Assembly (NCBI GenBank): GCA_964565425.1
Contig: CAZMEZ010000004.1
Coordinates: forward strand, 24,907-88,906
DNA length: 64,000 nucleotides
Reading direction: 5' to 3'
Source: an uncultured Planctomycetia bacterium
GTDB lineage: Bacteria; Omnitrophota; Gorgyraeia; Tantalellales; Tantalellaceae
Shown here: piece by piece, positions 3,177-62,094 of the stretch
Layout of the letters: every line of letters begins with the position of its first letter
How positions within the stretch are numbered: the stretch's first letter is position 1
Program-made: the position numbers and the translations under genes
The notes under the pieces: generated by a model
Seen by the model: only the letters and a program-made list of their open reading frames with translations
Databases searched by the model: none
Told to the model about the DNA's origin: nothing

Positions 3177-3449
3177 ATGATAAAGAAGATAGCGAAAAGA
3201 CTTGCGAACAGGTCTTCCGCCGGTTCCAGCAAGGGCACCTGCAAGAAAGCCGCCACGAGCATGACAAAATCTTCCTCCAAGGCCAAGAAATCGACCTCGA
3301 GGAGAAAGAAGGTCAGCTGGGAGGAGTGGAACACCCTGATAGCCCAGAAGGCTTACGAGATATTCGAAAAAAGGGGCTATTCTCACGGTAACGATCAGAC
3401 GGACTGGTACGAAGCCGAAAAGATGGTCAGCAAGACCTACAAAGTCTGA
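3177..3449 (+). CDS. DUF2934 domain small protein with Lys/Ser-rich N-terminus
   Basis: C-terminal AYEIFEKRGYSHGNDQTDWYEAE is the DUF2934 signature. A GGAAGGGG RBS lies upstream. Confidence 0.5.
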   Translation: MIKKIAKRLANRSSAGSSKGTCKKAATSMTKSSSKAKKSTSRRKKVSWEEWNTLIAQKAYEIFEKRGYSHGNDQTDWYEAEKMVSKTYKV

Positions 3450-4808: not shown

Positions 4809-4830
4809 CGCGATGTTGTGTGACGCTTTT

Positions 4831-4920
4831 GTCGTCCGTCGTCCGTCGTTCGAATTTCGGTACAGTTGGCACTTATCGCAGAGTGTAACACGGCATTCGG
4901 ATCCCGAACGACGAACGACG
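4831..4920. repeat. hairpin-forming spacer element E1 with arms built from GTCGTYC / CGAACGA heptamers
   Basis: cgtcgtccgtcgttcg (4837-4852) is the reverse complement of cgaacgacgaacgacg (4905-4920) with 1 mismatch. It is related to the element at 8347-8422. Confidence 0.8.
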
Positions 4921-4936
4921 TAAATTAGAATAACTC

Positions 4937-6617: not shown

Positions 6618-7139
6618 ATGGCGATGAAGGCGCTTATCGTGATGGACATGCTCAATGATTTTATCGATGAGAAGGGACCGTTGTATTGCGGCGAAGAGAG
6701 CAGGGAGATGGTCCCTTTTATCGGCAAAAAGATAGAAGAATACCGGCGTTCCGGAGATAAGGTCATCTATGTGTGCGACGCGCACGCCCCGGACGATAAG
6801 GAATTCCGTATGTTCGCCGGCCACGCCGTGAAAGGGACGAAAGGGGCGCAGGTCATTGAGGCCCTGAAGCCGGGGGCATCGGATGTGGTCATCGAGAAGA
6901 CCACGGTAAAACCTTTTTACGGGACCGGGCTGGAAAGTGCCCTTGAAGAAATAAAGCCCGAAGAGGTCGGCGTAGTGGGCGTATGCACGTCGATCTGCAT
7001 CATGGAAGTGGTGAGCGAGTTGAGGGTAAGGGGATATAAGACGGTCGTGTATCGCGAAGGCGTAGCCGATTTTGACAAAAAAGCCCATGAGTTCGCTCTC
7101 GCGCGCATGGAGAAGGTGTACGGGGCGATTGTTGAGTGA
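6618..7139 (+). CDS. pncA: nicotinamidase / isochorismatase-family cysteine hydrolase
   Basis: Asp (MDMLNDF), Lys and Cys (GVCTSICI) triad context. The gene is adjacent to nicotinate phosphoribosyltransferase. Confidence 0.7.
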   Translation: MAMKALIVMDMLNDFIDEKGPLYCGEESREMVPFIGKKIEEYRRSGDKVIYVCDAHAPDDKEFRMFAGHAVKGTKGAQVIEALKPGASDVVIEKTTVKPFYGTGLESALEEIKPEEVGVVGVCTSICIMEVVSELRVRGYKTVVYREGVADFDKKAHEFALARMEKVYGAIVE

Positions 7140-7259
7140 TGGGTGATGAGTGATGGGCAAGGCGCTGGGCGCGAGGCGCTAGTGATAAGTGATATGTAAT
7201 ACGTGATACGTACTGGGGACTGGCAACTGGGGACTGGGGACTTTTCTTGTGACTTGCAA
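7134..7259. repeat. phased heptanucleotide array (18 consecutive related 7-mers)
   Basis: gagtgat gggtgat gagtgat gggcaag gcgctgg gcgcgag gcgctag tgataag tgatatg taatacg tgatacg tactggg gactggc aactggg gactggg gactttt cttgtga cttgcaa. The array starts on the pncA stop codon. Confidence 0.9.
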
Positions 7260-7272
7260 CTAAAGGAACCGC

Positions 7273-8334
7273 ATGACAAAATGGCAATACGGGAAGAGAC
7301 TGAAGCCCTCGGTCTTTGATATACCCGTCAGGAAGATAAAGAGCGGGTGGTACAGCGACAAATATTTCGTCCGGACAAAAAAGATACTGGAAAAGGATAA
7401 TAATCACGCCCGGGCACTCATGCAGGTTTTCTGCAGGAAGGATGCCGTGGTATGCGGCCTTGACGAGGCCATAGCCGTACTTAAGCTTTGCGCCGGCAGG
7501 CCGAAAGAGCTCGTCATAAAGGCGCTGTACGACGGCGACAAGGTAAAGGCCGGCGATACGGTCATGACGATAGAGGGCGACTACGGCACTTTCGCGCATC
7601 TCGAAACGGTTTACCTGGGAGTAATAGCCAGACCGACCGCGGTCGCGACCGCTGTCAGAAAAGTGGTTAAGGCGGCAAAAGGGAAAAAAGTCCTGTTCTT
7701 CCCCGCCAGGTTCGATCACTACAGGGTGCAGACGACTGACGGGTATGCCGCTTTCATATCGGGCGCCCTGGGGGTGTCCACGGACGCGCAGGGCCTCTGG
7801 TGGGGGGAAAAGGGGCTGGGGACCGTGCCTCACGGGCTCATCGCGGCTTACGGCGGCGACACGGTAAAGGCCGCGGTCGCTTTCGACAAGTATATGCCGA
7901 AGGACATACAGAGGATAGTGCTCGTGGATTTCGAGAACGATTGCGTGGGGACATCGCTGGAGGTCGCCGAAGCTCTCGGCGACAGGTTGTGGGCGGTCCG
8001 GTTCGACACGGCCGAAGACGTCCGGGACGTGTCGGTCAAAGGCAAAGGAAAAGATTCGTACGGCGTGTGTCCCGAACTGGTTTTCCGGGCCAGAAAGGCC
8101 CTTGATGAACACGGTTATAAGAAAGTGAAGATAATAATCTCCAGCGGTTTTAACGAAGAAAAGATAAAAAGGTTCATAAGACTCAAGGTTCCCTTTGACG
8201 CGGTGGGCGTGGGGTCGGCCCTCATGCGCGAAAAGATAGATTTCACCGCCGACGTGGTCAAGGTCCACGGGAAGCCGCTCGCGAAGATAGGGAGGAAGTA
8301 TAATCCGAATCCGAGATTGAAGGTAGTGAGGTGA
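7273..8334 (+). CDS. pncB: nicotinate phosphoribosyltransferase (short, archaeal-like type)
   Basis: 353 aa, with the YSDKYF start region and GVGS near the C-terminus. It is paired with pncA. Confidence 0.7.
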   Translation: MTKWQYGKRLKPSVFDIPVRKIKSGWYSDKYFVRTKKILEKDNNHARALMQVFCRKDAVVCGLDEAIAVLKLCAGRPKELVIKALYDGDKVKAGDTVMTIEGDYGTFAHLETVYLGVIARPTAVATAVRKVVKAAKGKKVLFFPARFDHYRVQTTDGYAAFISGALGVSTDAQGLWWGEKGLGTVPHGLIAAYGGDTVKAAVAFDKYMPKDIQRIVLVDFENDCVGTSLEVAEALGDRLWAVRFDTAEDVRDVSVKGKGKDSYGVCPELVFRARKALDEHGYKKVKIIISSGFNEEKIKRFIRLKVPFDAVGVGSALMREKIDFTADVVKVHGKPLAKIGRKYNPNPRLKVVR

Positions 8335-8346
8335 CGCGTGACGGTT

Positions 8347-8422
8347 CCGTCGTTCGTCGTTCGAAATTCGGACACTAATTACAAAGCGTAATGCGATATT
8401 CGAACCCCGAACGACGGACGAC
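8347..8422. repeat. hairpin-forming spacer element E2 (same family as E1)
   Basis: cgtcgttcgtcgttcg (8348-8363) pairs with cgaacgacggacgac (8408-8422). The segment gcgatattcgaaccccgaacgacg recurs at 62021-62047. Confidence 0.8.
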
Positions 8423-8460
8423 TAGCTTGAACCGTGAACGAAAAAAACACGGAGCGCAAC

Positions 8461-9807
8461 ATGGAAAAAGAAAAAATAGTGCTACTGGTCGACGATGACG
8501 AGACGGTTTGCGGTCTTCTCGAGAAGATCGTGTCCCCGATGGTCGAAGAGAAGGTGGTCTGCGCTTTCACCGGCGCGGAAGCGAATAATATCATAAAGAA
8601 GAAGGAGCTCGCCCTCGCTATACTCGATTATAAGCTGCCCGATACGGACGGCATAGAACTGATGAAGAAGATAAAAGCCGTCGATAACGAAGTTCCCGTC
8701 GTAATAGTGACGGGCTTCGGCTCCATAGAGACGGGCGTCGAGGCGATCAAGCACGGCGCGTACGACTATCTTTTAAAACCTTTCCAGCCCGAGAAGATAC
8801 ACGCCCTTGTCAGGGGGCTCGTAAATTACAAGAAGCTCCGGGAGGAGAACCTTGCGCTCAGGGAAGAGCTTGGTTTGAGATACAGCATGGGGCGCCTGAT
8901 AGGTAAAAGCGAGAAGATACGCAAGATCTACGACCAGATCCCGAACCTCGTGAATACCGATTCGACGGTCCTCATACAGGGAGAAAGCGGAACGGGAAAA
9001 GAACTGCTCGCGAGGGCCATTCACTCTAATTCGCCGCGCAAGGACAAGCCTTTTGTCGTAGCCGACTGCACGGCGCTTGCCGAGAGTCTGCTGGAAAGCG
9101 AGCTCTTCGGGCACGAGAAAGGGTCGTTCACGGGGGCCATACGCCAGAAGATCGGGAGGTTCGAACAGGCGGATGGCGGGACGATATTCCTGGACGAGAT
9201 AGGCGATATCTCCGCGGCGGCGCAACTTAAGCTGCTCAGGGTACTCCAGGAGATGACCTTTGAAAGGGTCGGGGGCGAAGAGACCATAAAGGTCGACGTA
9301 CGCGTAATAGCCGCGACGAACAAAGACCTGGACAGGCTCATGCAGGAAGGCAAGTTCCGGGAAGACCTGTTCTACCGTCTCAGCGTTATACCCGTATACA
9401 TGCCGCCGCTTCGTGAACGAAAGGTGGATATACCGTCGCTTGCCAGGTGTTTCGTTGACCAGTTCGCGGTAAAGAACGCGAAAAAGATAGAGAACATTTC
9501 CGACGACGCGTTCAGGCTGCTTATGGATCATGACTGGCCGGGCAACATACGCGAGCTCGAGAACGCCATGGAGAGGGCGGTTGTCGTAGCCCGTGGGAAC
9601 ATTATCCAGGAAGAGGACCTTCCGCCGAAAATATACAAGCAGCCGACAGGTGCCCCGGCGAGCAGTAATTCCCTTAAGGAGAACGAGAAATTCCTGATAA
9701 GCAGGGTGCTTGCTGAATGCGGTAACAACATGCTCAAGGCCGCCAAAGAACTCGGCATTTCCCGATCCACGCTTTACGGTAAGATGAAGAAGCTGGGGAT
9801 AAGATAG
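8461..9807 (+). CDS. sigma-54-dependent response regulator (receiver + AAA+ + Fis-type HTH; NtrC family)
   Basis: Receiver domain (LLVDDD, ILDYKLPDTDG), Walker A GESGTGKE, the ESELFGHEKGSFTGA (GAFTGA-type) loop, and a C-terminal HTH. ATG 8461 has GGAG 6 nt upstream. GTG 8434 is the longest possible start. Confidence 0.85.
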   Translation: MEKEKIVLLVDDDETVCGLLEKIVSPMVEEKVVCAFTGAEANNIIKKKELALAILDYKLPDTDGIELMKKIKAVDNEVPVVIVTGFGSIETGVEAIKHGAYDYLLKPFQPEKIHALVRGLVNYKKLREENLALREELGLRYSMGRLIGKSEKIRKIYDQIPNLVNTDSTVLIQGESGTGKELLARAIHSNSPRKDKPFVVADCTALAESLLESELFGHEKGSFTGAIRQKIGRFEQADGGTIFLDEIGDISAAAQLKLLRVLQEMTFERVGGEETIKVDVRVIAATNKDLDRLMQEGKFREDLFYRLSVIPVYMPPLRERKVDIPSLARCFVDQFAVKNAKKIENISDDAFRLLMDHDWPGNIRELENAMERAVVVARGNIIQEEDLPPKIYKQPTGAPASSNSLKENEKFLISRVLAECGNNMLKAAKELGISRSTLYGKMKKLGIR

Positions 9808-9908
9808 GCGTGAGTCGTAGGTCTTGAGTGTATTCGTATTGCGTCGTGCGTATTGCGTGATGCGTATTGCGAACGTAATTATTGATTAATAGTTATTGGT
9901 TATGACAG
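9804..9908. repeat. phased heptanucleotide array (15 units)
   Basis: ataggcg tgagtcg taggtct tgagtgt attcgta ttgcgtc gtgcgta ttgcgtg atgcgta ttgcgaa cgtaatt attgatt aatagtt attggtt atgacag. The array begins on the stop codon. Confidence 0.85.
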
Positions 9909-10161
9909 ATTGCCGCGTCGCTTCGCTCCTCGCAATGACAGAAGAGGGCGACCCCAACTATTTACCATTCACGCCCTCCCTGCTCAGGCCATCCAATCCT
10001 CCCAAAACTGTACGAAAATCATACAATACCCGCCATATAGCTGTATTTCGTAATATGTTTTAAATAAAGCACTTACGAATGCATAGTGATTCATTGTGTC
10101 CGAAATGCGCACATAGCACTTTATCAGACATTTTTCGTCGAATTTACCTTCAAAAGATCTC

Positions 10162-10174
10162 TTCCGTTACGGAA
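10162..10174. promoter_or_regulatory. perfect 13-nt palindrome, candidate enhancer (UAS) site
   Basis: TTCCGTtACGGAA lies about 80 nt upstream of the sigma-54 -24 element, in an AT-rich spacer. Confidence 0.2.
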
Positions 10175-10251
10175 TTCACGATTTAATCCATTTAGTTTAA
10201 ACCATTTATAACAATTAATAATGCGTGAGTTTTAGGCCGGTATCTTCACTT

Positions 10252-10267
10252 TGGCACGGTTGTTGCA
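10252..10267 (+). promoter_or_regulatory. sigma-54 (-24/-12) promoter
   Basis: TGGCACggttgTTGCA matches the consensus TGGCACG-N4-TTGCW exactly. It lies 55 nt upstream of ATG 10322. Confidence 0.75.
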
Positions 10268-10321
10268 ACTTTATATAAGTTGAAGCAATGGAACGGTCTT
10301 TAAAAGGAAAGAGGTGACAAG

Positions 10322-10822
10322 ATGAAGATAACGGTTTACAAAATATTAATATTCACGGTGATCGCGATGGTCATGTTGAACGTAACGGCCGACGATATCC
10401 ACTCACAGGGCATCGGTTCCGCGCCTTATGCAGTCACAACGCCGAATGAACTCGCCGAATGGATGGAAAAAGATTTCAGGTATTGCCTGACTTTTCCCGA
10501 CAGGTGGCAAACCCCTGAAGAGACCATGGAGGCAGGATCAGGCGACTGCGAGGATTTTGCCACTCTCGCTTCATATGTTCTTGACCATATCGGCGTGTCC
10601 AACGAAATACTGATCGTAAAGTTCAAGGGAACGGACGCGGGGCACGTGATATGCATATGGAGAGAAACAGACGGAAGTTTCAGCTATATTTCGAACCGGA
10701 AATTGTACCGCACCGGTGAAACGGATATTAAAAAAGCGATAGAAAGGTATTACCCGGAATGGGAAAGCGCTATCCTGACGGACGGGGAAGGGATAAAACT
10801 GGGAATGATGGCCCGAGAATAA
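10322..10822 (+). CDS. small secreted protein with transglutaminase-like Cys-His core
   Basis: N-terminal signal/TM segment, then GSGDCEDFATLASYVL...GHVICIW, resembling a transglutaminase-like cysteine-peptidase core. An AAGAGGTG RBS is present. Confidence 0.4.
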   Translation: MKITVYKILIFTVIAMVMLNVTADDIHSQGIGSAPYAVTTPNELAEWMEKDFRYCLTFPDRWQTPEETMEAGSGDCEDFATLASYVLDHIGVSNEILIVKFKGTDAGHVICIWRETDGSFSYISNRKLYRTGETDIKKAIERYYPEWESAILTDGEGIKLGMMARE

Positions 10823-10852
10823 AAGAACACGGAAAGTCCATCGGCAGTAAAA

Positions 10853-10882
10853 AAGCCGGGCATGGCAGTGTCCGGCTTTTTT
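10853..10882 (+). terminator. rho-independent terminator
   Basis: aagccgg-12 nt loop-ccggctt followed by a T5 run. Confidence 0.65.
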
Positions 10883-10971
10883 GTATTGACGGCCCGAAAC
10901 GGATTTTGACATAATGATTCCAGGACGGGAGAAATTTCCGGTCCGGAACCTTTGCAAAAGGAGCCGATCTT

Positions 10972-12336
10972 ATGCCGGCGGATTACGGTATGGAAAGAAG
11001 CATGAGGCAGGTCCAGTATCTGTCCCAGCAGGCCCGGATAACGGTGCATATACTTCAGCTGCCCCTTCTTGAGCTGAGAGAGTACCTCGCGCGGGAACTG
11101 ACGGAAAATCCCATGCTCGAAGGAGACGAAGGGGAGCGGGACAGGGAGAACGTGGAGGATATCGAAAGCGCCAAAGAATACGACTTCATAACGAGAAGGT
11201 CGGGTGTTTACGACGAAGAAAGAGAAGAGAAGCGCAGGTACAGGGAAGCGCAGATAACCAAAGAAGAGACCCTCGAAGATCACCTCTTGTGGCAGCTGGA
11301 CATGTCCACCGAAGAAATAGATCACGGGATAGGGGAAGAGATTATAGGGGATCTTGACCGTAACGGATATCTCAGGTCCGATACCCGACGGATCGCCGAG
11401 AAGTTCTATGTTCCGCTCGAAAAGGTGGAGGAAATTTTGTTCCTGATCCAGGGGCTCCACCCGGCAGGGGTAGGGGCCAGGGACCTTAGGGAATGCCTTC
11501 TCGCGCAGCTGAGATCACAGGGCAAGGAAGATACCCTCGGTTACCGGATAGTGGAAACATGCCTTAAGGACCTTGAAAAAGGGGACGATGCGAGTCTCGC
11601 AAAAAAGCTTCGCGTAAAACAGGAAGATGTCGTGAAGGCCAGACAACTGATAAATTCGCTGGAACCCAAACCGGGAAGGATGTTCGCGCCCGGAGAAAGC
11701 GTTTGGGCCGTTCCGGATATAATTATCGAAAGGAAAGACGACAGGTTCAGCGTCAGCCTGAACGAACGGTTCCTGCCGAAACTGCGCCTGAGCTCTTATT
11801 ACTTAAAACTTCTGAAGGGCAAGAACGCGGATGATGATGTAAAGGGTTTTCTGGAAGAGAGGAAGACCAGGGCCCAGTGGGTGATAGAGGCGATCCTGCA
11901 AAGACGGGATACGATAAAGAAGGTCGCGGAATACATAGTGAATGTGCAGAAGGATTTTCTTGATGATCCGTGGGGCAGCGTCAAACCGCTTAAAATGGAA
12001 GAGATCGCCGAGGACCTGGGTGTAAGCAAATCGACAGTGAGCAGGGCGGTCGCGAAAAAATATGTCCAAACGGAATACGGGCTCCTGCCGCTCAAGCGTT
12101 TTTTCAGCACGGCATTGGCCGGGGAGAAGGGAGAAGATCTTTCGGCCGATCTTGTGAAGAAGAAGATCGGCGAAATGATCGCCGATGAAGACAAGCGAAC
12201 GCCGTTAAGCGATGCGGATATAGCCGGGCGGTTGGAAAAGGACGGGATAAACATAGCCCGCAGGACCGTGGCTAAATACCGCGAAGGATTGGGGATAGCC
12301 GCTCGTGGCCGAAGACGGAAAAAGCGGAAGGGCTGA
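10972..12336 (+). CDS. rpoN: RNA polymerase sigma-54 factor
   Basis: Gln/Leu-rich region I, an acidic region II, and a C-terminal RpoN box ARRTVAKYRE. An AAGGAG RBS lies 8 nt upstream. Confidence 0.9.
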   Translation: MPADYGMERSMRQVQYLSQQARITVHILQLPLLELREYLARELTENPMLEGDEGERDRENVEDIESAKEYDFITRRSGVYDEEREEKRRYREAQITKEETLEDHLLWQLDMSTEEIDHGIGEEIIGDLDRNGYLRSDTRRIAEKFYVPLEKVEEILFLIQGLHPAGVGARDLRECLLAQLRSQGKEDTLGYRIVETCLKDLEKGDDASLAKKLRVKQEDVVKARQLINSLEPKPGRMFAPGESVWAVPDIIIERKDDRFSVSLNERFLPKLRLSSYYLKLLKGKNADDDVKGFLEERKTRAQWVIEAILQRRDTIKKVAEYIVNVQKDFLDDPWGSVKPLKMEEIAEDLGVSKSTVSRAVAKKYVQTEYGLLPLKRFFSTALAGEKGEDLSADLVKKKIGEMIADEDKRTPLSDADIAGRLEKDGINIARRTVAKYREGLGIAARGRRRKKRKG

Positions 12337-15075: not shown

Positions 15076-15104
15076 TTGACAGTATCTTATGTATTTACTA
15101 TAAT
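15076..15104 (+). promoter_or_regulatory. consensus sigma-70 promoter (TTGACA-17 nt-TATAAT)
   Basis: Perfect -35 (15076-15081) and -10 (15099-15104) hexamers with a 17-nt spacer. The -10 ends 8 nt before ATG 15113 and no SD is present. Confidence 0.65.
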
Positions 15105-15112
15105 ACTGTTCA

Positions 15113-15478
15113 ATGAATGAACACCCCTTAAAAGAGGATATATTTAAGATCCTTCGCCTGTTATCCAACCAGGAGGACATGTCCCAGCGGGACCTGTCCG
15201 GTCATCTCGACATGTCACTGGGCAAGACCAATTATCTTTTGAAATCGATGGTCCAGCGCGGTCTCATAATGGTGAAGAACTTCACTGTCAGGGACCAGAA
15301 GATGAAAAAGGTCAAATACATACTGACTACGAACGGCCTGGACGAGAAGGTCCGGTTGGCATATTACTATCTCAAAAAGAAGGAAGCGGAGTATCTGGAG
15401 CTCAAGAACGAGCTGGAGAACGGTTCGGCGGCCGTAGAGGCGGACGTGAAGCCTTTGCCCGAAAAATCAGAGGTATGA
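15113..15478 (+). CDS. MarR-family EPS-associated transcriptional regulator
   Basis: Winged helix (MSQRDLSGHLDMSLGKTNYLLKSMVQRGLIMVKNF) followed by a coiled C-terminus. It is the first gene of the glycan locus. Confidence 0.7.
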   Translation: MNEHPLKEDIFKILRLLSNQEDMSQRDLSGHLDMSLGKTNYLLKSMVQRGLIMVKNFTVRDQKMKKVKYILTTNGLDEKVRLAYYYLKKKEAEYLELKNELENGSAAVEADVKPLPEKSEV

Positions 15479-25243: not shown

Positions 25244-25586
25244 AGAGATCGCATAGCGCAAAGCGCATAGCGGTTCGCGATGTGCGGTTAGCGGGTCGAG
25301 AAAGTAAATAATAAGTGATACGTGATACGCAGGCTAGAGGCACGAGGCTAGAGGCACGAGGCTAGAGGCAAGAGGCAAGAGGCAAGAGGCGAAAGAAAGG
25401 CGTTGATTACGAAGATTAAGACGCAGACGATGATCTTAGATTACGAAGATCTGATCCCCGTAATCTATTTAAATCTTCGTAATCAAATTATATAGTACGC
25501 GTTATCTGTGATCATCTGTTTTAAATCTGTGCTCATCCGTGTTTTAAGGAAAAACGAACGACGAACGGCGAACAACGGACGACGAT
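25241..25586 (+). repeat. mosaic spacer A: heptamer arrays, a core element of about 100 bp, and a CGAACGA array
   Basis: The order is cgcatag words, gtgatac words, then a 14-mer/7-mer tandem at 25332-25389 (GAGG every 7 nt, 8 times). The core follows at 25389-25487, including a perfect 12-bp hairpin (gattacgaagat 25439-25450 / atcttcgtaatc 25473-25484). The spacer ends with gaacgac gaacggc gaacaac ggacgac. Confidence 0.9.
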
Positions 25587-27051: not shown

Positions 27052-28077
27052 ATGGCGAAGAAGAAAAGATCCAACAGGTGTTTGATGGTAGCGGAGGTGT
27101 CAGCCAACCACGGCCGGAACTTAAGGCAGGCTGTGGCCATGATAAGGAAGGCGAAGGAATGCGGCGCCGACGCGGTAAAGTTCCAGACGTACACTCCGGA
27201 TACGCTTACGATCGATTCGGACAGGAGTTTCTTCAGGGTCAAACACCCCAAATGGAAGGGGCAGACGCTTTACCAGCTTTACGGGAAGGCATATACGCCC
27301 TGGGAATGGTTCGCGAAACTCAAAAAAACGGCGGATTCCGAAGGTATCATGTTCTTCTCGACCGCTTTTGACAGGACGTCGGTCGATCTTCTCGAGAAGC
27401 TCAATGTGCCCGTTCATAAAATAGCTTCGTTCGAGCTTGTCGACCTGCCGCTCATCGAGTACGCGGCAAAGACCGGTAAACCCCTGATCATGTCCACGGG
27501 CATGGCGACGAAGGCGGAGATAAAAGAAGCCGTGGATGTCGCGAGAAAGGCCGGGGCTAAGGATATAACGCTTTTAAAATGCGTGTCGAGTTATCCGGCG
27601 GAACCGCGCGAAATGAATCTCCTGACCCTGCGGGATATGAAGGAGAGTTTCGGCTGCCCGGTCGGCCTTTCGGACCACAGCATGGGGATAGGCGCATCGA
27701 TAGCCGCGGTTGCCCTGGGGGCGACCGTGATAGAGAAGCATTTTACCTTATCAAGGAAGATAAGGACGCCGGACAGCTTCTTCTCGATCGAGCCGGATGA
27801 GCTGGAAAGGCTCATCGTGAACGCGAGAATAGCGGAGAAGGCCGTGGGGAAGGTCCGTTACGGCCTTACCGGGGACGAAAAGAAGAGCAAGGCGTTCAGG
27901 CGGTCGCTTTTCGCGGTCAAGGATATAAAGAAAGGAGAAGTTCTCAACGCCGAGAACGTGAGGTCCGTGAGGCCCGCGAACGGCCTGAGCCCCAAATACG
28001 CGGACGCGGTTTACGGCAAAAAGGCGAAAAAAGGCATCAAAAAAGGCACCCCGCTGGGGTGGGAGCATATATCGTGA
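27052..28077 (+). CDS. pseI: pseudaminic acid synthase (NeuB family)
   Basis: MVAEVSANHGRNLRQAVAMIRKAKECGADAVKFQTY, GLSDHS, and a C-terminal SAF domain. Confidence 0.85.
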   Translation: MAKKKRSNRCLMVAEVSANHGRNLRQAVAMIRKAKECGADAVKFQTYTPDTLTIDSDRSFFRVKHPKWKGQTLYQLYGKAYTPWEWFAKLKKTADSEGIMFFSTAFDRTSVDLLEKLNVPVHKIASFELVDLPLIEYAAKTGKPLIMSTGMATKAEIKEAVDVARKAGAKDITLLKCVSSYPAEPREMNLLTLRDMKESFGCPVGLSDHSMGIGASIAAVALGATVIEKHFTLSRKIRTPDSFFSIEPDELERLIVNARIAEKAVGKVRYGLTGDEKKSKAFRRSLFAVKDIKKGEVLNAENVRSVRPANGLSPKYADAVYGKKAKKGIKKGTPLGWEHIS

Positions 28078-37942: not shown

Positions 37943-39649
37943 ATGGAGCGGCCTAAAATGGAAAAAATAAGAGATATACGCGAAGCTTTTGAAAGACCGG
38001 GATTGGCCCGGATAGTCGGGGCGCACGACGGGCTTACGGCGAAGCTTGTGGAGAAGAACGATTTTGACGGGGTGTGGGCGAGCGGCCTCGAGATATCCGC
38101 TTCCTACGCTATCCCCGACGCCAGCATTCTCACGATGTCGCAATACCTGGAAAGGGCCTGTGAAATGAAAGACGCGGTATCGATCCCCGTCGTCGCGGAC
38201 TGCGATACCGGATACGGCAATTCAAACAACGTGATACACATGATCAAGAAGTATGAAGCGGCGGGGATCTCCGGAGTATGCATAGAGGATAAGAGGTTCC
38301 CCAAAGTGAACAGCCTTCTCGCGGAAGGAAGGCAGGAGCTCGCTCCGATAGCCGAATTCGTGGGCAAGATAATGGCCGCGAAGAACGCCCAATGCTCGGA
38401 AAGGTTCATGGTAATAGCGAGGGTGGAAGCCCTTATAGCCGGGTGGGGGGAGCAGGAAGCCCTTCTCAGGGCCGAAAAATACGCCGAGGCCGGGGCGGAT
38501 GCCATCCTGATACATTCCAAGGCGAATACCGCCGATGAAGTCATAAGTTTCGCCCGAAAGTGGGACAGGAGGCTGCCTTTGGTCATAGTGCCTACCAATT
38601 ATCCGTCGGTCATGATGGATCTTGGTGAGAAGGAGCTGCTTGATCTGGGCATAAAAATGGTGATCTTCGCGAATCAGGGATTAAGAAGCGCTATCAGGGC
38701 CATAAACGACACTTTCGCCGAGATAAAACAGGCGGGAGGCATACATACGGTGGATGGGAAGATCGTCAGTCTTGATGAAGTTTTCCACCTGCAGGGCATG
38801 ACCGATTTCAAGAAGCAGGAGAAGGAATACCTGAAGTCGGAGAATGAAGATGTTGCCGTTATCATGCCCGCTGCCGGGAAACCGGCCCACCAGGATTCCA
38901 TCGTGCCGCTGCTCACGGACAGGCCGCTTTGCATGATAGATATCAACGGGAAGACCCTGCTTGAAAGGAATCTGAACACCCTGAAGGAATTGCGTATCAA
39001 GAACGTGAATATGGTTGTCGGCTACAAGAAAGAGAGCATCCTCAAGGGGCTCGACCTGGACGGCATAAATCTCATCACGAACGACGATTACAGGACCAAA
39101 CACCTGCTCCATTCCATCATGCTTGCCGAGCGGGAGATGAAAGACAGGACGCTTATAGTCTACGCCGACATACTGTTCGATAAGAATCTCGTCAGCAGGA
39201 TCCTGGGTCTCAAGGAGGACATAGTCCTGGTGGGGGATAACACCTACAAGAAGTATGGGAAACGCAACAAGAAACTCGAGCTGATCAAAACATCCGAACC
39301 CATGACCACCGGCAAACGGGAGATCGCCAACGACGAACTTTTTAGCGTGGAGAGGATCGGCAGGGAAGTGGACGAGGCACCCTCGAATTTTGAATTCGCG
39401 GGCATAGCTTATTTGTCAAGGAAAGGGACGCAGTCGCTGAAAAGACTTTATTGCGAAAGGAAAAAAGAATTGGAAGGCGGGGACGAAAGGTTCCATGAAG
39501 CCGGGGGTTTCGACCAGGCGTCATTTACGGATATAATACAGGAAGCGATCGACAGCGGGATTTCGGTAAAGGTGTTGCCCGTGAATTCCGGTTGGATGGA
39601 GATACATGAATTCGAGGATTACAGGTTCGCCTGTGAAAAGATAAAGTAA
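37943..39649 (+). CDS. pepM: phosphoenolpyruvate mutase fused to a C-terminal nucleotidyl(cytidylyl)transferase domain
   Basis: IVGAHDGLTAKL, ADCDTGYGN and the diagnostic EDK-x5-NS motif (EDKRFPKVNS, nt 38285-38314). From about aa 303 (nt about 38849) an NTase fold begins (VAVIMPAAGKPAH...). Confidence 0.85.
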   Translation: MERPKMEKIRDIREAFERPGLARIVGAHDGLTAKLVEKNDFDGVWASGLEISASYAIPDASILTMSQYLERACEMKDAVSIPVVADCDTGYGNSNNVIHMIKKYEAAGISGVCIEDKRFPKVNSLLAEGRQELAPIAEFVGKIMAAKNAQCSERFMVIARVEALIAGWGEQEALLRAEKYAEAGADAILIHSKANTADEVISFARKWDRRLPLVIVPTNYPSVMMDLGEKELLDLGIKMVIFANQGLRSAIRAINDTFAEIKQAGGIHTVDGKIVSLDEVFHLQGMTDFKKQEKEYLKSENEDVAVIMPAAGKPAHQDSIVPLLTDRPLCMIDINGKTLLERNLNTLKELRIKNVNMVVGYKKESILKGLDLDGINLITNDDYRTKHLLHSIMLAEREMKDRTLIVYADILFDKNLVSRILGLKEDIVLVGDNTYKKYGKRNKKLELIKTSEPMTTGKREIANDELFSVERIGREVDEAPSNFEFAGIAYLSRKGTQSLKRLYCERKKELEGGDERFHEAGGFDQASFTDIIQEAIDSGISVKVLPVNSGWMEIHEFEDYRFACEKIK

Positions 39650-39662
39650 GGGGAAAAAGGAT

Positions 39663-41213
39663 ATGGCCAGGAAAGGAAAGATTTTGATCATGTCCCCGAA
39701 CCTCAAAGGGGTGAAAGGCGGCGTCAACCGTATCCAGCCGAGCCTCGGCGTGGGGTATCTGGCGGCGGTCCTCGAGAGAGAGGGGCATGAGGTCCACATA
39801 CGCGACACGGCGCTCGAAGGGCACGGCAATGAAGTGCTTCTGGAGGACGGGAAGACGATCATGAGGGGGGAATCGGACGCCGAGATCGCGAAATACGTCT
39901 CATCCCTCGGTCCGGATATCGTGGGGATCTCGGTCCTTTTTTCCAATCTCGCGGAACATGCCCATAAGATCGCGAAGATCGTAAAGGAAACGGATCCGGA
40001 TATCAAAGTCGTCATGGGCGGCAATCACATAACCAATTCCGCCCGGGACTATATCTATGCCCTTACGCCGGGAAACGAAGATTCGAATCTCGGCAGGATC
40101 TTTTCCGATATGGAAGACCGTAATATCGATTACGCCATGGCCGGCGAATGTGATTTCCAGTTCGCGGAACTGGTGGACGCTTTATTGAACAAAAAGGACC
40201 CGAAAAACATCGCCGGACTTGTTTACAGGAAGCCCGGGTGCGGGACGCCGGACGCGAACGTTACGGTCAATCCCAATTTCTCGGACAGGCCGGATATAAG
40301 GAGATTGCCGCATCCCGCGCGGCATCTCATGAACATGGAAGGATATTTCAAAATAGATCTTTTTCATTCGACCAAATCGCATTCGGAAAGGGTCCTCAAC
40401 GTCATGGCGGCGCGGGGTTGCCCGGAAAAGTGCGCTTTTTGCACCACTCCTTCTACGTGGGGCAACAGGATCAGGTGGAGGGATCCCCTGGATATTTACG
40501 AGGAGATCGTCTCATGCGTCGAAAGATACGGCATCGGAGAGATCCAGTTTGAGGACGATACGTTAACAAGCAGCAAAGCGCACATAATGGACCTGTGCGA
40601 ACTCATGGAACCCCTGGGCATCCCGTGGTGTACCCCGAACGGGACGAAGGTCAATTATTACATGGAACACCAGCTCGAGATGTTCAGGAGAATGGCGAAG
40701 GCCGGATGCTACCAGGTAACGTTCGGGTGTGAAAGCGGAGTGCAACGGGTACTTGACCGGATAGTCCGCAAGAATCTGCGTATCGAACAGATACCGCGCG
40801 CCATAGATAACGCTAAAAAAGCCGGCCTTTTGGTGCATACCTTCTGGATCGTCGGGTTCCCGGGCGAGACCAGGCGGGAGATGGAAGAGACCGTGGAATT
40901 CGCCGCACGGGCCGGAGCTGACAGTTATTCTATATCCACTTTCTCGCCTTTGCCCGGCACGCCCATTTACAGGCAGGTCGTAAAGGAGAATCTCTGGTGG
41001 GACCCTGAAGTCAGGACGAAAGACATGCTTTTCAGGAATTCCCTTATCAGGGTCGACGAGTTCAGCGGTCCGGAGGAATTCCAGGCGTGGGTGGACGAGA
41101 AGAACGCCCATCTTAACGGTCTACTTGAAGAAAAGGACCCGGAGCGGGCGAAATGGGTGCGCGAGAGCAATGCGAGACGCCTCAGGCACGAGGCGAAGTT
41201 CAAATATACCTGA
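39663..41213 (+). CDS. B12-binding-domain radical SAM protein (paralogue 2; Fom3/PhpK-like by context)
   Basis: B12-domain N-terminus and ARGCPEKCAFCTT. It is wedged between pepM and ppd. Confidence 0.8.
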   Translation: MARKGKILIMSPNLKGVKGGVNRIQPSLGVGYLAAVLEREGHEVHIRDTALEGHGNEVLLEDGKTIMRGESDAEIAKYVSSLGPDIVGISVLFSNLAEHAHKIAKIVKETDPDIKVVMGGNHITNSARDYIYALTPGNEDSNLGRIFSDMEDRNIDYAMAGECDFQFAELVDALLNKKDPKNIAGLVYRKPGCGTPDANVTVNPNFSDRPDIRRLPHPARHLMNMEGYFKIDLFHSTKSHSERVLNVMAARGCPEKCAFCTTPSTWGNRIRWRDPLDIYEEIVSCVERYGIGEIQFEDDTLTSSKAHIMDLCELMEPLGIPWCTPNGTKVNYYMEHQLEMFRRMAKAGCYQVTFGCESGVQRVLDRIVRKNLRIEQIPRAIDNAKKAGLLVHTFWIVGFPGETRREMEETVEFAARAGADSYSISTFSPLPGTPIYRQVVKENLWWDPEVRTKDMLFRNSLIRVDEFSGPEEFQAWVDEKNAHLNGLLEEKDPERAKWVRESNARRLRHEAKFKYT

Positions 41214-41234
41214 TCTTACAAAGGATGATCGAAG

Positions 41235-42392
41235 ATGATAGATTGTTCGGATTTTTTTGAAGCGCTTAAAAACAGGAACCTGGCCTTTTTCACGGGCGTT
41301 CCGGATTCTTTGCTCAAGGATATCTGCGCCTGTATTTCCGATAATACGGGACCGGGAAACAACATCATCGCGGCGAATGAAGGGAACGCCGTCGCTTTGG
41401 CTGCCGGTTATCACCTGGCTACAGGAGAGATAGGCACCGTATACATGCAGAATTCAGGGCAAGGGAACGCGGTCAACCCCTTGACCTCCCTGGCGGACCC
41501 CGACGTTTACGGGATACCCATGCTGATGATCATCGCCTGGAGGGGTGAACCCGGAGGGAAGGACGAACCGCAGCATCTTAAACAGGGAAAGATCACATTG
41601 GAGATGCTCGACACCCTTAATATTCCTTATTCTGTTTTGCCGGAGGACACGATGGGATCCGGGAAGGTCCTGGATAGAGCTGTTGGATATATGGGGGACA
41701 AAAAGGCTCCGTACGCGTTGATCGTCAGGAAGGGCATTTTTGGGCCATATGTTACGCGGGACGTTGATATGCCGACCGGCGGACTTATGAAAGAAGAAGC
41801 GCTTAAACTCGTGGTCGGGAGTGTAGGGGAGCGGGACGTGATCGTCTCCACGACGGGAACGACCTCGAGAGAACTCTTCGAGCACAGGAAAGAGATCAAA
41901 GAAGGCCAGGGGAGGGATTTCTTGACAGTCGGTTCCATGGGGCATGCTTCCTCCATTGCTTTGGGGATAGCGCTCAGGAAGAAGGAACGGGATATTTATT
42001 GTCTGGACGGCGACGGGGCGGCCATCATGCACATGGGAGCGCTCGCCGTTATAGGCGACCAGTGCCCCCAGAACTTCAGACACATCATTTTTAATAACGG
42101 GGCCCATGATTCCGTGGGAGGGCAACCGACTGCCGGGTTCAGGATCGATTTTCCGGCTATCGCCATGGCTTGCGGGTACAAGGCGGCATTCAAGGCGGAA
42201 AACGCGGAGGAGATAGTGGAAAAGATGTCTTTATTGCGGGAGATTGACGGCCCGGCCCTGTTGGAAATAAGGGTAAGGAAAGGCTCGAGAAAGGACCTGG
42301 GACGTCCTTCGGTATCGCCGGTAGAAGGGAAAAAAGCTTTTATGGATTTTTTGTTCGAAAAGGATAAAGATCGCCAATCTCCGGAGGGATAG
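41235..42392 (+). CDS. ppd: phosphonopyruvate decarboxylase
   Basis: MIDCSDFFEALKNRNLAFFTGVPDSLLK start typical of Ppd/AepY, and the ThDP motif GDGAAIMHMG...NNGAHDS. Confidence 0.8.
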   Translation: MIDCSDFFEALKNRNLAFFTGVPDSLLKDICACISDNTGPGNNIIAANEGNAVALAAGYHLATGEIGTVYMQNSGQGNAVNPLTSLADPDVYGIPMLMIIAWRGEPGGKDEPQHLKQGKITLEMLDTLNIPYSVLPEDTMGSGKVLDRAVGYMGDKKAPYALIVRKGIFGPYVTRDVDMPTGGLMKEEALKLVVGSVGERDVIVSTTGTTSRELFEHRKEIKEGQGRDFLTVGSMGHASSIALGIALRKKERDIYCLDGDGAAIMHMGALAVIGDQCPQNFRHIIFNNGAHDSVGGQPTAGFRIDFPAIAMACGYKAAFKAENAEEIVEKMSLLREIDGPALLEIRVRKGSRKDLGRPSVSPVEGKKAFMDFLFEKDKDRQSPEG

Positions 42393-43513
42393 TGTTGAAT
42401 TATCGCATGCCGACGAACATAAATTTTGGTAAAGATTGCCTGGCCGGTCTGGCCGATGTTATCGCGCCTGGCCCGGCGGGGAAAGTCCTTGTTTTCACGG
42501 GAACAGGATCGGCTAAAATTTCAGGCGCTCTTGACCGTATAACCGGGATATTGTCCGGGTGCAACCCGGTCTTTTTTGAAGGTATAGAGCCCGATCCCGC
42601 CTTAGAGAGCCTGGAAAGAGGCATAGAAGTGTGCAGGCGGGAGGTCCCGGACCTCATCATAGCGGTCGGCGGAGGCAGCGTTATCGATTACGCGAAAGCG
42701 GTTTCCGTCCTGGCGGGGGAAGAAGGGGAAGTGTCGGATTTCTTCAGGGGCGGACGGAAACTAAAAGGCGGCAGGGCCGCGTTTATCGCGGTCCCGACCA
42801 CTTTCGGCACTTCGAGCGAGATAACCCCTTACGCGGTGATGACCGATACGGTAAACGGTATCAAGATCACCCTGGAAGACGCGAGCATATTCCCGGACCG
42901 GGCGTTCATTGACCCGAAATTTACCTTGACGATGCCGGAAGAGCTCGTGGCCGCCTCCTGCGCGGATCTCCTGTCCCACGCTGTCGAGGCGTACTGGAAC
43001 GTGAACGCCACGGAACTCACGGATATTTTCGCGTTGCAGGCCATAAGAACTTTCATGGGATCCTACAAGCGGACGTTCGAATCCCCCGCCGATACGGCAG
43101 CCAGGGGAAGGATAGTCCTGGCGGGCATATGCGCCGGATTGGCTTTTTCGAACACCAGGACAACGGCGTGCCACTCCATCTCATATCCGATGACCGCTGT
43201 CTTCGGCGTGCCTCACGGCATGGCATGCGTTTTAACGCTGGGCGAGATGCTGGAGTTCAATTCGACGGCTAGCGGGGAAAAGCTCCTGGCGTTGTGCGGC
43301 GCCATGGATTGCGGTGATGTGCGGGAAGCGAAACAGAAAATAGGATCTATCCTGAAAGATCTGCGCATTAAAACAAGATTAAGGGATTACGGCCTGAAAA
43401 AGGGCGATCTTGCCCTTATCCTGGACAAGGGGTTCACCCCGGAGAGGATGGCGAACAATCCCGGTAAGGTCACCAGGGACGACCTGGAAAAAATGCTGGA
43501 GAGGATATATTGA
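42392..43513 (+). CDS. iron-containing (group III) alcohol dehydrogenase; phosphonoacetaldehyde reductase by context
   Basis: GGGSVIDYAKA and the metal His cluster HSISYPMTAVFGVPHG. The start is uncertain (GTG 42392, TTG 42395 or ATG 42407). Confidence 0.7.
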   Translation: MLNYRMPTNINFGKDCLAGLADVIAPGPAGKVLVFTGTGSAKISGALDRITGILSGCNPVFFEGIEPDPALESLERGIEVCRREVPDLIIAVGGGSVIDYAKAVSVLAGEEGEVSDFFRGGRKLKGGRAAFIAVPTTFGTSSEITPYAVMTDTVNGIKITLEDASIFPDRAFIDPKFTLTMPEELVAASCADLLSHAVEAYWNVNATELTDIFALQAIRTFMGSYKRTFESPADTAARGRIVLAGICAGLAFSNTRTTACHSISYPMTAVFGVPHGMACVLTLGEMLEFNSTASGEKLLALCGAMDCGDVREAKQKIGSILKDLRIKTRLRDYGLKKGDLALILDKGFTPERMANNPGKVTRDDLEKMLERIY

Positions 43514-47701: not shown

Positions 47702-47865
47702 TAAGCAATAAGTGATAGGTGATAGGTAATACGTGGGCGAAAGGCTAGAGGCGAAATTGATTACGAAGATTTTGAAGTAGACGATAATCTTAGATTACGA
47801 AGATGTAATCTCCGCGATCTCATTTAAATCTCGTAATCAACGAAAAACGAATAACGCAATACGAA
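47698..47865 (+). repeat. mosaic spacer B: GTGATAR words, core element and NAACGAA words
   Basis: gtgataa gcaataa gtgatag gtgatag gtaatac, then the core at 47743-47841 (53 nt at 47743-47795 identical to 61580-61632), then caacgaa aaacgaa taacgca atacgaa. Confidence 0.9.
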
Positions 47866-47918
47866 TTTAGCCGGGATCTTAAAGTTTACGGCTTACAGCT
47901 GACAAAGAAAGGTATGAT

Positions 47919-59383: not shown

Positions 59384-59782
59384 TCCCTGGTTTCCAGTTG
59401 CCAGTCCCCGGTAAAATTCACAAGATACCAGATACTAGATACAAACTTCATTCCCGCTACTCATCACCTATCGCGTATTATGTATTACTTACTTTGTACG
59501 TCCCTTTAGCCCCTCGCCTTTAGCCTCGTTACTCGTCGTTCGTTTTTCGTCGTTCGTCGTTCGTTGTTCGTTAAAACACGGATGATCACTGATATTGCGT
59601 ATTACGTGAGTTGATCGCGGAGATTTAAATGGGATTACGGAGATTACATCTTCGTAATCTAAAAGAGGGTGTCAAACTGCAAATCTTCGTAATCAACGCC
59701 TTTCTTCCGCCTTTATCCTTTAACCTTTATCCTTTAACCTTTATCCTTTAACCTTTATCCTTTAACCTTCATCCTTGCCTCA
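59381..59782 (-). repeat. mosaic spacer C: same word families and core as A/B/D but in inverted orientation
   Basis: tagtccc tggtttc cagttgc cagtccc ... gtcgttc gtttttc gtcgttc gtcgttc gttgttc, then the core (reverse complement) at 59610-59711, then the 14-mer cctttatcctttaa repeated 4.6 times at 59710-59774. Confidence 0.9.
59502..59659. repeat. left arm of the long inverted repeat bracketing the priming transferase gene
   Basis: 59570-59659 is the reverse complement of 61418-61507 with 1 mismatch in 90 nt. The match extends to 59502 with two short indels. Confidence 0.9.
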
Positions 59783-59853: not shown

Positions 59854-59882
59854 TTGCATCAAATCCCCATTAGCGATAAACT
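59854..59882 (+). promoter_or_regulatory. candidate sigma-70 promoter (TTGCAT-17 nt-TAAACT)
   Basis: Located inside the IR-bracketed segment, about 50 nt upstream of ATG 59930. Confidence 0.25.
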
Positions 59883-59929: not shown

Positions 59930-61342
59930 ATGATAAAACCGACAAAAAAGATATATCCCGTATATTTCCTCGTGGATATCGCCATAATAAGCCTGTGCTT
60001 CATCGCATCTTACCTGGTGAGGTACAATTCTCCCGATGAGATATTCCGCGAGGCCTATTTTCCGAACCTCGAAGGCTATTCTTTTGTCTTTCTGCTTTGG
60101 ACAACGTTCATAGTCATTTCCTTCAAGAGGCGGAATCTTTACATGACGGACAGAAGCCTGAACATACCGCGGGAGATGTTCAGGGTGATAATAAGCGTTT
60201 TTTATACCGGGATCCTGATAGGCGCGGTGATATTCTTCGCCCAGTACAAGTTCTTTTCGCGCCAGGTATACCTGACGAGTTTTGTTTCATTGGCGGTTTT
60301 CCTGAGCCTCTGGCGTATCATAAAGAGGCTTATCCTTAGGAAACTTATAGCCGAGGGTTATCATAACGTCAACGTGCTTGTGGTCGGCATCGGCCGGGTA
60401 GGAAAGATAATCCTGGAAGAGATAAAAAAGACGCCCTGGGTCGGTCTCAGGGCAGCAGGTGTCCTGGACGATTTCGTAGAGGGCAAGATCGAAGGGGTGC
60501 CTGTCCTGGGCAGGCTTGATGATTTCCCCGTGGTGGCTAAAAAGTATTTTATCGACGAAGTCATAGTTACTATACCATCGGAGAAAATAGCGGTTTCCGG
60601 GATAATACGCCAGGCGAAACAGATGCGGCTCGGCGTGAAGGTCGTCCCCGAGAACTTCGAGGAACCGCTCCCGGTCTTAAACATAAATTATCTGGGGGTC
60701 ATACCGCTTCTGACCTACAAGGAGAGGCGACATCACCCGGCGGAATTCGCGATGAAACGCTTCGTCGATTTTATTTTATCTTTCCTGCTCCTGGCGGTAA
60801 CGGCTCCCGTGTTCGCGGTCATAGCCGTCCTGATAAAGATCGATTCCAAAGGCCCCGTGTTCTATGTCCAGAAGAGAGTGGGGTTCAAGGGGAAGAAATT
60901 CAGTTTCTACAAGTTCCGTTCGATGGCCGCGGGCGCCGACAAAATGAGGGTGGAGCTTTCGGAAAAGAACGAGGTCAAGGACGGCGTTATATTCAAGATC
61001 AGGGAAGATCCCCGCGTCACGCGCGTCGGTAAGGTTCTGAGAAGATACAGTCTGGACGAACTCCCGCAGCTCATCAATGTCCTGCGCGGCGATATGAGCC
61101 TCGTGGGGCCGAGACCGCCGCTCGCCGACGAGGTCGAAAAATACAGCCCCGCGCACATGCAGAGGCTTTCCATAAGGCCCGGCATGACCGGCCTCTCCCA
61201 GATAAGGGGAAGAAGCGAACTCACCTTCCAAAGATGGGTAAAATGGGACCTCTGGTACATAAACAACTGGTCCATAGGCCTGGACCTCCAGATAATCCTG
61301 AGGACGATACCGGCGGTGCTAAGGGGCGAGGGAGCGTATTGA
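59930..61342 (+). CDS. polyprenyl-phosphate glycosylphosphotransferase (WbaP/EPS priming sugar transferase)
   Basis: N-terminal TM bundle, a central NAD-like linker ([10 protein letters not shown]), and a C-terminal bacterial sugar transferase domain ([10 protein letters not shown] ... [22 protein letters not shown]). ATG 59930 has a GGAAGAG RBS (the track gives 59783). Confidence 0.85.
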
Positions 61343-61962: not shown

Positions 61963-62094
61963 TGAGGCGAAGGTTAAAGGTTAAAGGTTAAAGGGCCCGA
62001 TAAACCGGGCAACTACGGTTTACGATATTCGAACCCCGAACGACGAACGATGGATTACGACTCACGATTCACGACTTACGATTCACGATCATAA
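61963..62094 (+). repeat. heptamer-built spacer (GGTTAAA x3, half E element, TYACGAY x5)
   Basis: ggttaaa x3 at 61972-61992, gatattcgaaccccgaacgacg at 62024-62045 (matching 8396-8417), and ttacgac tcacgat tcacgac ttacgat tcacgat at 62055-62089. Confidence 0.85.

Follow-up and report, generated by a model that had tools for sequence, protein, structure and literature searches.

A short palindromic repeat recurs in the spacers of a large glycan locus in the stretch of DNA analyzed here (the window), 64 kb of contig CAZMEZ010000004.1 from a metagenome-assembled genome (MAG) of Omnitrophota, a phylum of uncultured ultra-small bacteria. Its core, of around 85 nt, is present five times, once inverted. 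It is best read as a lineage-restricted, non-coding palindromic spacer repeat that has recently multiplied in one Omnitrophota species, and that is akin to bacterial interspersed mosaic elements (BIMEs), to the hairpin-forming doublets, termed REPINs, of REP (repetitive extragenic palindromic) sequences, or to miniature inverted-repeat transposable elements (MITEs) without a target-site duplication. The probability that we attach to this reading is roughly 0.55. The repeat family is new; the kind of element is already known. Small palindromic repeats are frequent in the spacers of well-studied bacteria, where their spread and role are largely unknown, and none has been described in Omnitrophota. 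Coordinates are those of the window, and copy counts hold for these 64 kb.

The Core and Its Five Copies

An earlier note on this DNA had reported an element of about 100 bp in five copies, one of them inverted. A reading of the regions, a strict pattern, and a covariance model all returned these five copies in the places given (Table 1). The core, with tightened limits TTGATTACG...RATCAA(C), is around 85 nt long, and the repeated unit, which comprises the core, common 7-nt tandem arrays, and a common right-hand module, exceeds 100 bp.

The layout of the long copies is TTG-R1-(22 variable nt)-R2-(3 nt)-R3'-(7–8 nt with the palindrome ATTTAAAT)-R4'-AA(C), where R is the 12-mer GATYRCGRRGAT and where R3' and R4' are its reverse complement, so that each core contains two direct and two inverted 12-mers. 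R1 pairs with R4', and R2 pairs with R3', in a nested hairpin of around 29 pairs and two stacked helices. R2-N3-R3 is a 27-nt palindrome with a near-perfect dyad, and in copy A the 12-mers R2 and R4, which the earlier note had singled out as a perfect inverted pair, are exact reverse complements. Around 16 pairs form between (G)TTGATYRCGRAGATTT and AAATCTYCGYRATCAA(C), the outer arms, which are terminal inverted repeats of the kind that MITEs have. The 12-mers are spaced by 34, 15, and 20 nt, and the core contains no period-7 array. The short copy, D1, is without the variable stretch and one of the forward 12-mers; this form would arise by deletion between the two direct 12-mers. In copy C, the variable stretch is of a different type (TTGCAGTTTGACACCCTCTTTTA), and 26 nt separate the end of core D2 from the ATG of the GIY-YIG nuclease gene that follows it.

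When up to two mismatches were allowed, the 12-mer GATTACGAAGAT matched 23 times in the window versus 6.75 ± 2.35 times in shuffled sequence (none of the 100 shuffles reached 23), and all nine exact matches lay inside the five copies. A strict 30-nt degenerate pattern, GAAGATNNNATCNNCGNNATN{1,3}ATTTAAAT, which spans R2, R3, and ATTTAAAT, found the five copies only, with 0 matches expected in the window. The covariance model made from the copies gave them scores of 52–105 bits, the next unrelated match having E > 1; used with its filters off, the model revealed no further diverged copies in the 64 kb. All five copies are intergenic, but this position alone says little because only 5.9% of the window is non-coding.

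Pairwise identity between the cores is 75–86%, and C and D1 are 96.8% identical over their common part. The identity is mosaic (B with D2, C with D1, and A with C) and runs into the flanks. Thus, the segments 47743–47795 of B and 61580–61632 of D2 are identical over 53 nt, flanking array included, and A and C have the left end ggcgRaagaaaggcgttgattacgaagat in common. Both of these identities, already pointed out in the earlier note, proved exact, and the mosaic, BIME-like build that it had described by analogy is apparent in the identity among copies. Such mosaic similarity, reaching into the flanks, suggests that the copies have exchanged sequence.

Every copy folds better than its shuffled versions (z-scores of −2.7 to −6.7 on the better-folding strand), in agreement with the hairpin proposed from the inverted 12-mers. 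The core contains neither a sigma-70-like or sigma-54 promoter at a consistent position nor an intrinsic terminator. Other spacers of the window do have ordinary L-shaped terminators and good TTGACA-N17-TATAAT promoters, and the sole good sigma-54 site of the window (10252–10267) is far from any copy. An open reading frame of 56 aa across D1 was rejected as coding since it is not conserved in the other copies, in which the frames shift and, in B, stops occur.

Table 1. Positions of the repeat, of its flanking modules, and of related features (window coordinates unless a contig of a related genome, L011 to L018, is named)
Feature	Position	Strand	Description
Core A	25403–25486	+	Long form; covariance model 98 bits
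Core A, 12-mers	R1 25405–25416; R2 25439–25450; R3 25454–25465; R4 25473–25484		R3 inverted (ATCCCCGTAATC); R4 inverted, perfect
Core A, ATTTAAAT	25467–25474	+
Core B	47757–47841	+	Long form; R4 with a 1-nt deletion; 100 bits
Core C	59610–59697	−	Long form; inverted relative to the genes; 101 bits
Core D1	61416–61467	+	Short form with one forward and two inverted 12-mers; 52 bits
Core D2	61594–61679	+	Long form; R2 is the variant GATCGCGAAGAT; 105 bits
Purine-rich 7-nt array, copy A	25331–25402	+	AGGCTAG/AGGCAAG, at the left end of the core
Equivalent arrays, other copies	47735–47756; 59698–59779; 61394–61415; 61558–61593		59698–59779 on the minus strand
Right-hand module, copy A	25487–25586	+	(..TACGC..TATCNGTGATCATCYGTGTTTTAA), then (CGAACGA)n array
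Right-hand module, copies C and D1	59503–59609 (C); 61468–61557 (D1)		C on the minus strand
Upstream arrays, before D1	61348–61393	+	(CGCATAG)n-GGGTTAAG-(GTGATRC)n
Inverted repeat, C with D1	59503–59659 (−); 61418–61574		157 nt, 90% complementary
Sugar-transferase promoter	59854–59882	+	Conserved, sigma-70-like, TTGCAT-N17-TAAACT; not part of the repeat
TGTCA hairpins	L011 ~230–290, 1868–1950, 2615–2690, 7548–7625, 9685–9757; L014 4690–4760; L018 6750–6824		Sister species
Third hairpin family	4820–4925; 8335–8430; L017 8650–8830; L018 4380–4560		Right arm alone at 62023–62045

The Heptamer Arrays and the Larger Repeated Unit

A purine-rich 7-nt tandem array (AGGCTAG, AGGCAAG, AGGCGAA) directly precedes every copy. 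The right-hand module is common to A, C, and D1 and is missing from B and D2. Further upstream, (CGCATAG)n and (GTGATAC)n arrays precede both A (25249–25329) and D1, and the GTGATAG part is also found at 47702–47735. Copy C is inverted together with its arrays; the inverted repeat that it forms with D1 brackets the priming sugar-transferase gene (59930–61342) together with the promoter of that gene.

Seven is the sole tandem period detected in the window, where it is confined to non-coding DNA. Arrays of many different 7-nt units lie at 4831–4920, 7136–7242, 8348–8422, 9830–9871, 25250–25390, 25554–25585, 47708–47866, 59423–59776, 61349–61702, and 61970–62089. The arrays at 7212–7242 and, inverted, at 59384–59413 are made of ACTGGGG, the reverse complement of CCCCAGT, which is the unit of the cyanobacterial STRR1 repeat.

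Absence from Related Genomes

The window could be compared with around 45 kb of a sister species (around 90% protein identity; three samples, contigs L009–L014 and L016–L018) and with more distant relatives (L004, L005, and L008; 77–78% protein identity). Gene order and spacers are the same in the sister species, which also has heptamer arrays that include some of the same modules, such as CGCATAG-GGGTTAAG, AAGGTTA arrays, and ..ACTACGGTTTACGATATTCGAACCCC(GAACGAC)n; the upstream array modules also occur in the same order, after its GIY-YIG gene. Neither the 12-mer GATYRCGRRGAT nor a match to the covariance model was found in these 45 kb, which include the orthologous spacers A (L014, L016), B (L012), and C and D (L011). 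A 24-bit hit of the model in L011 was discarded as an extra copy because it corresponds to a different hairpin that is alike in structure only.

In the same 45 kb, the sister species has an unrelated hairpin, formed by inverted TGTCA/TGACA heptamer arrays, in seven or more copies. These hairpins lie, among other places, at the orthologues of junctions A, C, and D and after the isochorismatase gene, the orthologue of junction B having arrays only and no hairpin. The window, for its part, contains no member of the TGTCA family. The spacers occupied in both species number three of six versus the 2.7 or so expected by chance. An overlap at the level of chance speaks against a site-for-site replacement of one hairpin by the other and for independent colonization.

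A third hairpin family, with the left arm (GTCGTYC)n-GTTCGAAWTTCGG and the right arm CGATATTCGAACCCC(GAACGAC)n, is present in both species. The sister species has it at the orthologous GlgC/FMN-reductase spacer, a conservation that the GATTACGAAGAT core does not show, and this family is, therefore, older. In the distant relatives, the spacers around the sugar-transferase gene measure 104 and 33 nt and contain no 12-mers, 7-nt arrays, or hairpins.

The two close species thus provide a clean natural comparison: they share genes, spacers, and heptamer arrays, and their GATTACGAAGAT and TGTCA hairpin families are mutually exclusive, which implies a rapid turnover of such families within each species. 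The core is one among several hairpin families in a genus-wide spacer architecture that is built on heptamers. These repeats break the short-read assemblies of the lineage, and they could serve as strain markers.

The Glycan Locus

The proteins encoded around the repeat assign the window to a Candidatus Omnitrophota MAG. The glycan locus extends from around 15 to 63 kb, with all of its genes on the plus strand. It starts with a MarR-like, winged helix-turn-helix (wHTH) gene (15113–15478) and comprises genes for nonulosonic-acid synthesis (PseB/PseC-like proteins, NeuB, and cytidylyltransferases), RmlD, glycosyltransferases, the priming transferase, a phosphonate branch (phosphoenolpyruvate mutase, thiamine-pyrophosphate-dependent decarboxylase, and Fe-alcohol dehydrogenase), and B12/radical-SAM enzymes. 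The presence of NeuB-type nonulosonic-acid synthesis and of the phosphonate branch (27052–28077 and 37943–43513) suggests that the surface glycan is decorated with phosphonate.

The earlier note had placed every copy at a boundary between transcription blocks of this locus. The copies are indeed intergenic, and they occupy four of its six spacers of at least 60 nt, but the boundaries themselves are not an observation. The implied tie between the element and the organization of the locus is not supported either. Firstly, junctions A, B, and C have their spacers in the sister species too, where the core is missing from them. Secondly, the sugar-transferase gene keeps its own promoter, which is conserved in all four genomes (the window, L004 at ~9925–9953, L008 at ~9917–9945, and L011 at ~335–363) and which delimits, on the right-hand side, the sequence inserted with copy C. 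Since this promoter is conserved downstream of it, copy C is an insertion upstream of a self-sufficient promoter. Thirdly, the native promoters of the locus are devoid of the 12-mer. Nothing shows that the core regulates the glycan locus, and on the best reading it is no conserved regulator.

Is the Core a Known Repeat?

The earlier note had recognized no known family, and the searches agree. With Rfam, no match was obtained at the gathering score over the whole window, and the relaxation of the threshold to E ≤ 1 for the copies gave two implausible eukaryotic matches far below the gathering scores. A pattern that fits all five copies gave chance matches only in 185,579 species genomes and in the JGI metagenomes, all of them in coding DNA, on unrelated contigs from Omnitrophica and Endomicrobium; it had no match in viral contigs, and blastn in its distant mode gave none in plasmids or phages. 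In the full-text literature, no published account of such repeats or of heptamer arrays in Omnitrophota was found.

As regards class, the core has the extragenic palindrome of 20–40 nt and the inverted, hairpin-forming doublets of REP, BIME, and REPIN sequences. Such sequences also come with a cognate RAYT (Y1 transposase) gene flanked by copies and with tens to hundreds of copies per genome; in the 64 kb, five copies were counted, and no Y1 transposase was found among the proteins scanned with Pfam. It is not a classical REP because the foot of the palindrome has no GTAG-like head, the tetranucleotide that RAYT recognizes and cleaves: in B and D2, GTAG is confined to the variable stretch, and it is found neither in A, C, and D1 nor on the minus strand of any copy. 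It is not a classical MITE because it lacks a target-site duplication, and the window has no insertion sequence or transposon with matching ends that could be its parent. Nor is it a short tandemly repeated repetitive (STRR) sequence, since the heptamer arrays are in its flanks and not in the core itself.

Other candidates were tried and rejected. The JUMPStart/ops octamer GGCGGTAG occurs four times in the window (24979, 26336, 53741, and 57264, all on the plus strand), always in coding sequence and never in a copy, and no NusG paralogue or NusG-like protein was found among the window proteins (Pfam); around two occurrences would be expected on both strands together, and the excess is probably due to chance. 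The attC sites of integrons do not fit: the ends of the core, GTTGATY...RATCAAC, match RYYYAAC...GTTRRRY imperfectly and have the opposite polarity, its central loop is 3 nt long, and the window has no integrase. The IHF consensus and hix-like invertase sites, which were compared by eye or by pattern, do not fit.

How the Core May Have Spread and What It May Do

The data show the anatomy of the core, its set of copies, its mosaicism, its absence from relatives, and its lack of promoter, terminator, and coding signals; how it spread and whether it acts at the level of RNA are matters that we infer. The spread would have been recent and into pre-existing spacers, always beside a purine-rich 7-nt tandem array. 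One explanation is that the copies spread and were homogenized by recombination or gene conversion through their common array flanks; since they exchange segments that include these arrays, this would be no less likely than classical transposition. Three features (no duplications, a constant array context, and mosaic identity that continues into the arrays) together make copying by recombination or gene conversion a serious alternative to transposition. Another possibility is the action in trans of an enzyme encoded elsewhere in the genome.

Since the core lies between co-directional genes and has neither promoter nor terminator, it is probably transcribed as part of operon mRNAs, most likely the polycistronic mRNAs of the glycan locus. 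By analogy with the Correia/NEMIS, ERIC, and REP elements, its stem-loop could then be a signal for the processing or the stability of the message.

Several observations weigh against reading the core as a mobile palindromic repeat. There is no target-site duplication (the flanks are GCG/ATT, AAA/CGA, GCG/CTC, AAA/CTC, and AAA/CAT), and no transposase, RAYT/Y1 transposase, recombinase, or integrase was found among the 57 proteins of the window (Pfam). The five copies all come from 64 kb of the source genome and from a single locus. One 12-mer is used four times per core, which hints at a sequence-specific protein because pure structure needs no such reuse. No compensatory change was seen among the five copies in any of the 29 pairs. 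Finally, in all five copies, the strand opposite to the usual orientation folds better as RNA, by 4–11 kcal/mol (opposite/usual: −33.4/−27.4, −27.3/−23.3, −32.9/−21.5, −19.7/−9.7, and −27.1/−16.6 kcal/mol), so the weaker fold would fall in the sense mRNA for four of the five. This asymmetry exists because mismatches that are A.C on one strand are G.U on the other.

Alternative Explanations

The reuse of the 12-mer leads to the main rival, a protein-binding array, which we consider unlikely. Here, GATYRCGRRGAT would be the candidate site of a regulator of the glycan locus or of a nucleoid or segregation protein, with R2-N3-R3 as a 27-bp palindromic operator and with R1 and R4 as auxiliary half-sites. 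Such an array would account for the conservation of the 12-mer in sequence, and not merely in pairing, at four places per element; it would also suit the R2/R3 dyad and the location of all of the copies seen in one locus headed by a MarR/wHTH gene. However, the recognizable promoters of the locus (15076–15104 and 59854–59882) have no 12-mer, and that of the MarR-like gene carries a different dyad (ACAGTAT/ATACTGT). Moreover, R1 and R4 are lone half-sites around 70 nt apart, an arrangement that suits a hairpin better than operators, and the sister species has kept the genes and the spacers but has no such site. Copy C, inverted and upstream of an independent conserved promoter, is also difficult to reconcile with an operator.

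A bolder and likewise unlikely proposal is that the palindromic repeat is part of a genus-level "grammar" of spacers. A spacer would run from the stop codon through (CGCATAG)n, (GTGATAC)n, AGG arrays, a hairpin module, and (CGAACGA)n-type arrays to the start codon, and a species-specific hairpin would be copied from spacer to spacer, perhaps by the small GIY-YIG nuclease, without target-site duplication or a classical transposase. The GATTACGAAGAT core and the TGTCA hairpin might then be the interchangeable cargo of a new homing or conversion system that might also shape operon expression. This wider pattern, with its heptamer grammar, its species-specific hairpins, and a GIY-YIG gene nested among repeats, is the more interesting lead.

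The strand asymmetry raises the question of a structured RNA, either a small antisense or a cis-acting RNA, made from the strand with the G.U-tolerant hairpin, on which the mismatches of all five copies are the tolerable ones. We think it improbable. The covariation that the earlier note had proposed as a check was looked for, and no compensatory double change was seen; the asymmetry rests on around three independent substitutions, for which the chance probability is roughly 1 in 8. In the light of these two results, the asymmetry amounts to a hint and does not count as evidence for a functional RNA. The two other hairpin families of the lineage, the TGTCA family and the third family, show no strand preference in their folds. 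Furthermore, neither strand has a promoter or a terminator, Rfam gives no match, the sister species lacks the element, and it is the loops and the 22-nt stretch that vary while the sequence of the stem is fixed, which is the reverse of the usual situation in functional RNAs.

The position of C and D1 on either side of the priming sugar-transferase gene suggests a recombination site that would let this gene flip and so bring about phase variation of the glycan. The 157-nt inverted repeat is in keeping with this idea. So is the arrangement of 12-base half-sites around a short spacer, which recalls the sites used by serine invertases (hix and gix). Still, the idea is very improbable. Since the promoter of the gene lies inside the segment, flipping would not switch the gene off. 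The window has no recombinase gene (Pfam), no inverted partner lies close to copy A, B, or D2, and the spacer between half-sites is 3 nt versus 2 nt in hix-type sites; in the sister species, the two hairpins that flank the same gene are in direct orientation.

It is equally hard to believe in an assembly artefact, whereby repeats would have caused false joins and the "boundaries" would be chimeric junctions: sister-species contigs do break exactly in the repeats (arrays or hairpins form the ends of L009 and L010) and the D1–D2 tandem does stand in for a Fer4–Cupin cassette of that species, but relatives that were assembled independently have the same order of genes across junctions A, B, and C, an independent Logan assembly of the same strain (a 1.1-kb contig) matches the 4809–4936 spacer base for base, and D1 and D2 differ in their flanks and internal variants, as a collapsed repeat would not.

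Other Features of the Window

The GIY-YIG gene (61705–61962; 2719–3051 in L011) encodes a stand-alone nuclease of 85 aa and lies between repeat-filled spacers in both species. The N-terminus of the protein is MNKYC.. in the window versus MKGKRKGKYY.. in the sister species. The window lacks the Fer4+Cupin cassette found before the gene in that species and has the D1–D2 tandem in its place.

A sigma-54 cluster unrelated to the repeat occupies 8434–12336. It includes the gene for an NtrC-type activator (8434–9807), rpoN (10972–12336), and a perfect sigma-54 promoter, TGGCACGGTTGTTGCA (10252–10267), ahead of a small transglutaminase-like gene (10322–10822). The apparent gap of 393 nt between the branching-enzyme gene and glgC is mostly coding because it contains a 90-aa DUF2934 gene (3177–3449), which is annotated in L017 and L018.

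Comparison with Known Systems

REPINs consist of REP doublets that form hairpins and that are mobilized by RAYT transposases (PMC3116915). The core resembles the REP, BIME, and REPIN sequences in being short, extragenic, palindromic, and mosaic and in belonging to a species-specific family. As in a REPIN, inverted halves surround a less conserved spacer to give a hairpin of around 100 nt, and the elements occur singly or in tandem (here, D1–D2). Unlike these sequences, it has no GTAG-type head, each of its halves is made of two direct 12-mers rather than of an imperfect palindrome, no RAYT gene was seen in the 64 kb, and the core is always embedded in 7-nt tandem arrays.

The Correia/NEMIS elements of Neisseria and the ERIC elements of enterobacteria, studied by De Gregorio, Di Nocera, and colleagues, are reportedly intergenic sequences of around 100–150 bp with terminal inverted repeats; they are said to be co-transcribed with their neighbors and to form hairpins that, as targets of RNase III or RNase E, alter mRNA stability in an orientation-dependent manner. 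Correia elements have a TA duplication. The core differs from this group in having no target-site duplication, no internal IHF site, and no promoter hexamers, and no related autonomous insertion sequence is known for it; RNA processing, which is documented for the former, would be a candidate role of the core. The BOX elements of Streptococcus pneumoniae are intergenic modular mosaics with a variable number of modules, each of 45–60 nt, and with a predicted stable structure. Short and long forms coexist in BOX as they do here, but the sequences and the logic of the modules are different, the core being built of 12-mers set among 7-nt arrays.

The small dispersed repeats (SDRs) of Nostoc and Anabaena were reportedly described by Elhai et al. 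in 2008 (cited in PMC3116915) as single palindromic units of around 21–27 nt with no known transposase. SDRs nest in other repeats and in heptamer-rich spacers and differ between close relatives. The core, unlike an SDR, is a nested double palindrome of 85 nt.

Heptamer arrays near start codons are known as STRR sequences in cyanobacteria and as TAACTGA repeats in Beggiatoaceae, some Cyanobacteria, and Bacteroidetes, and a post-transcriptional role has been proposed for them but is unproven (PMC4679880). In Nostoc, heptamer repeats are reported to affect expression (preprint 10.1101/2022.06.06.494920). The flanks of every copy of the core are likewise intergenic tandem 7-mers that often reach up to the start codon, but many heptamers follow one another here in a fixed order instead of a single dominant unit. 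Spacers built of heptamer arrays, as found in Cyanobacteria, Beggiatoaceae, and some Bacteroidetes, are thereby extended to a further phylum.

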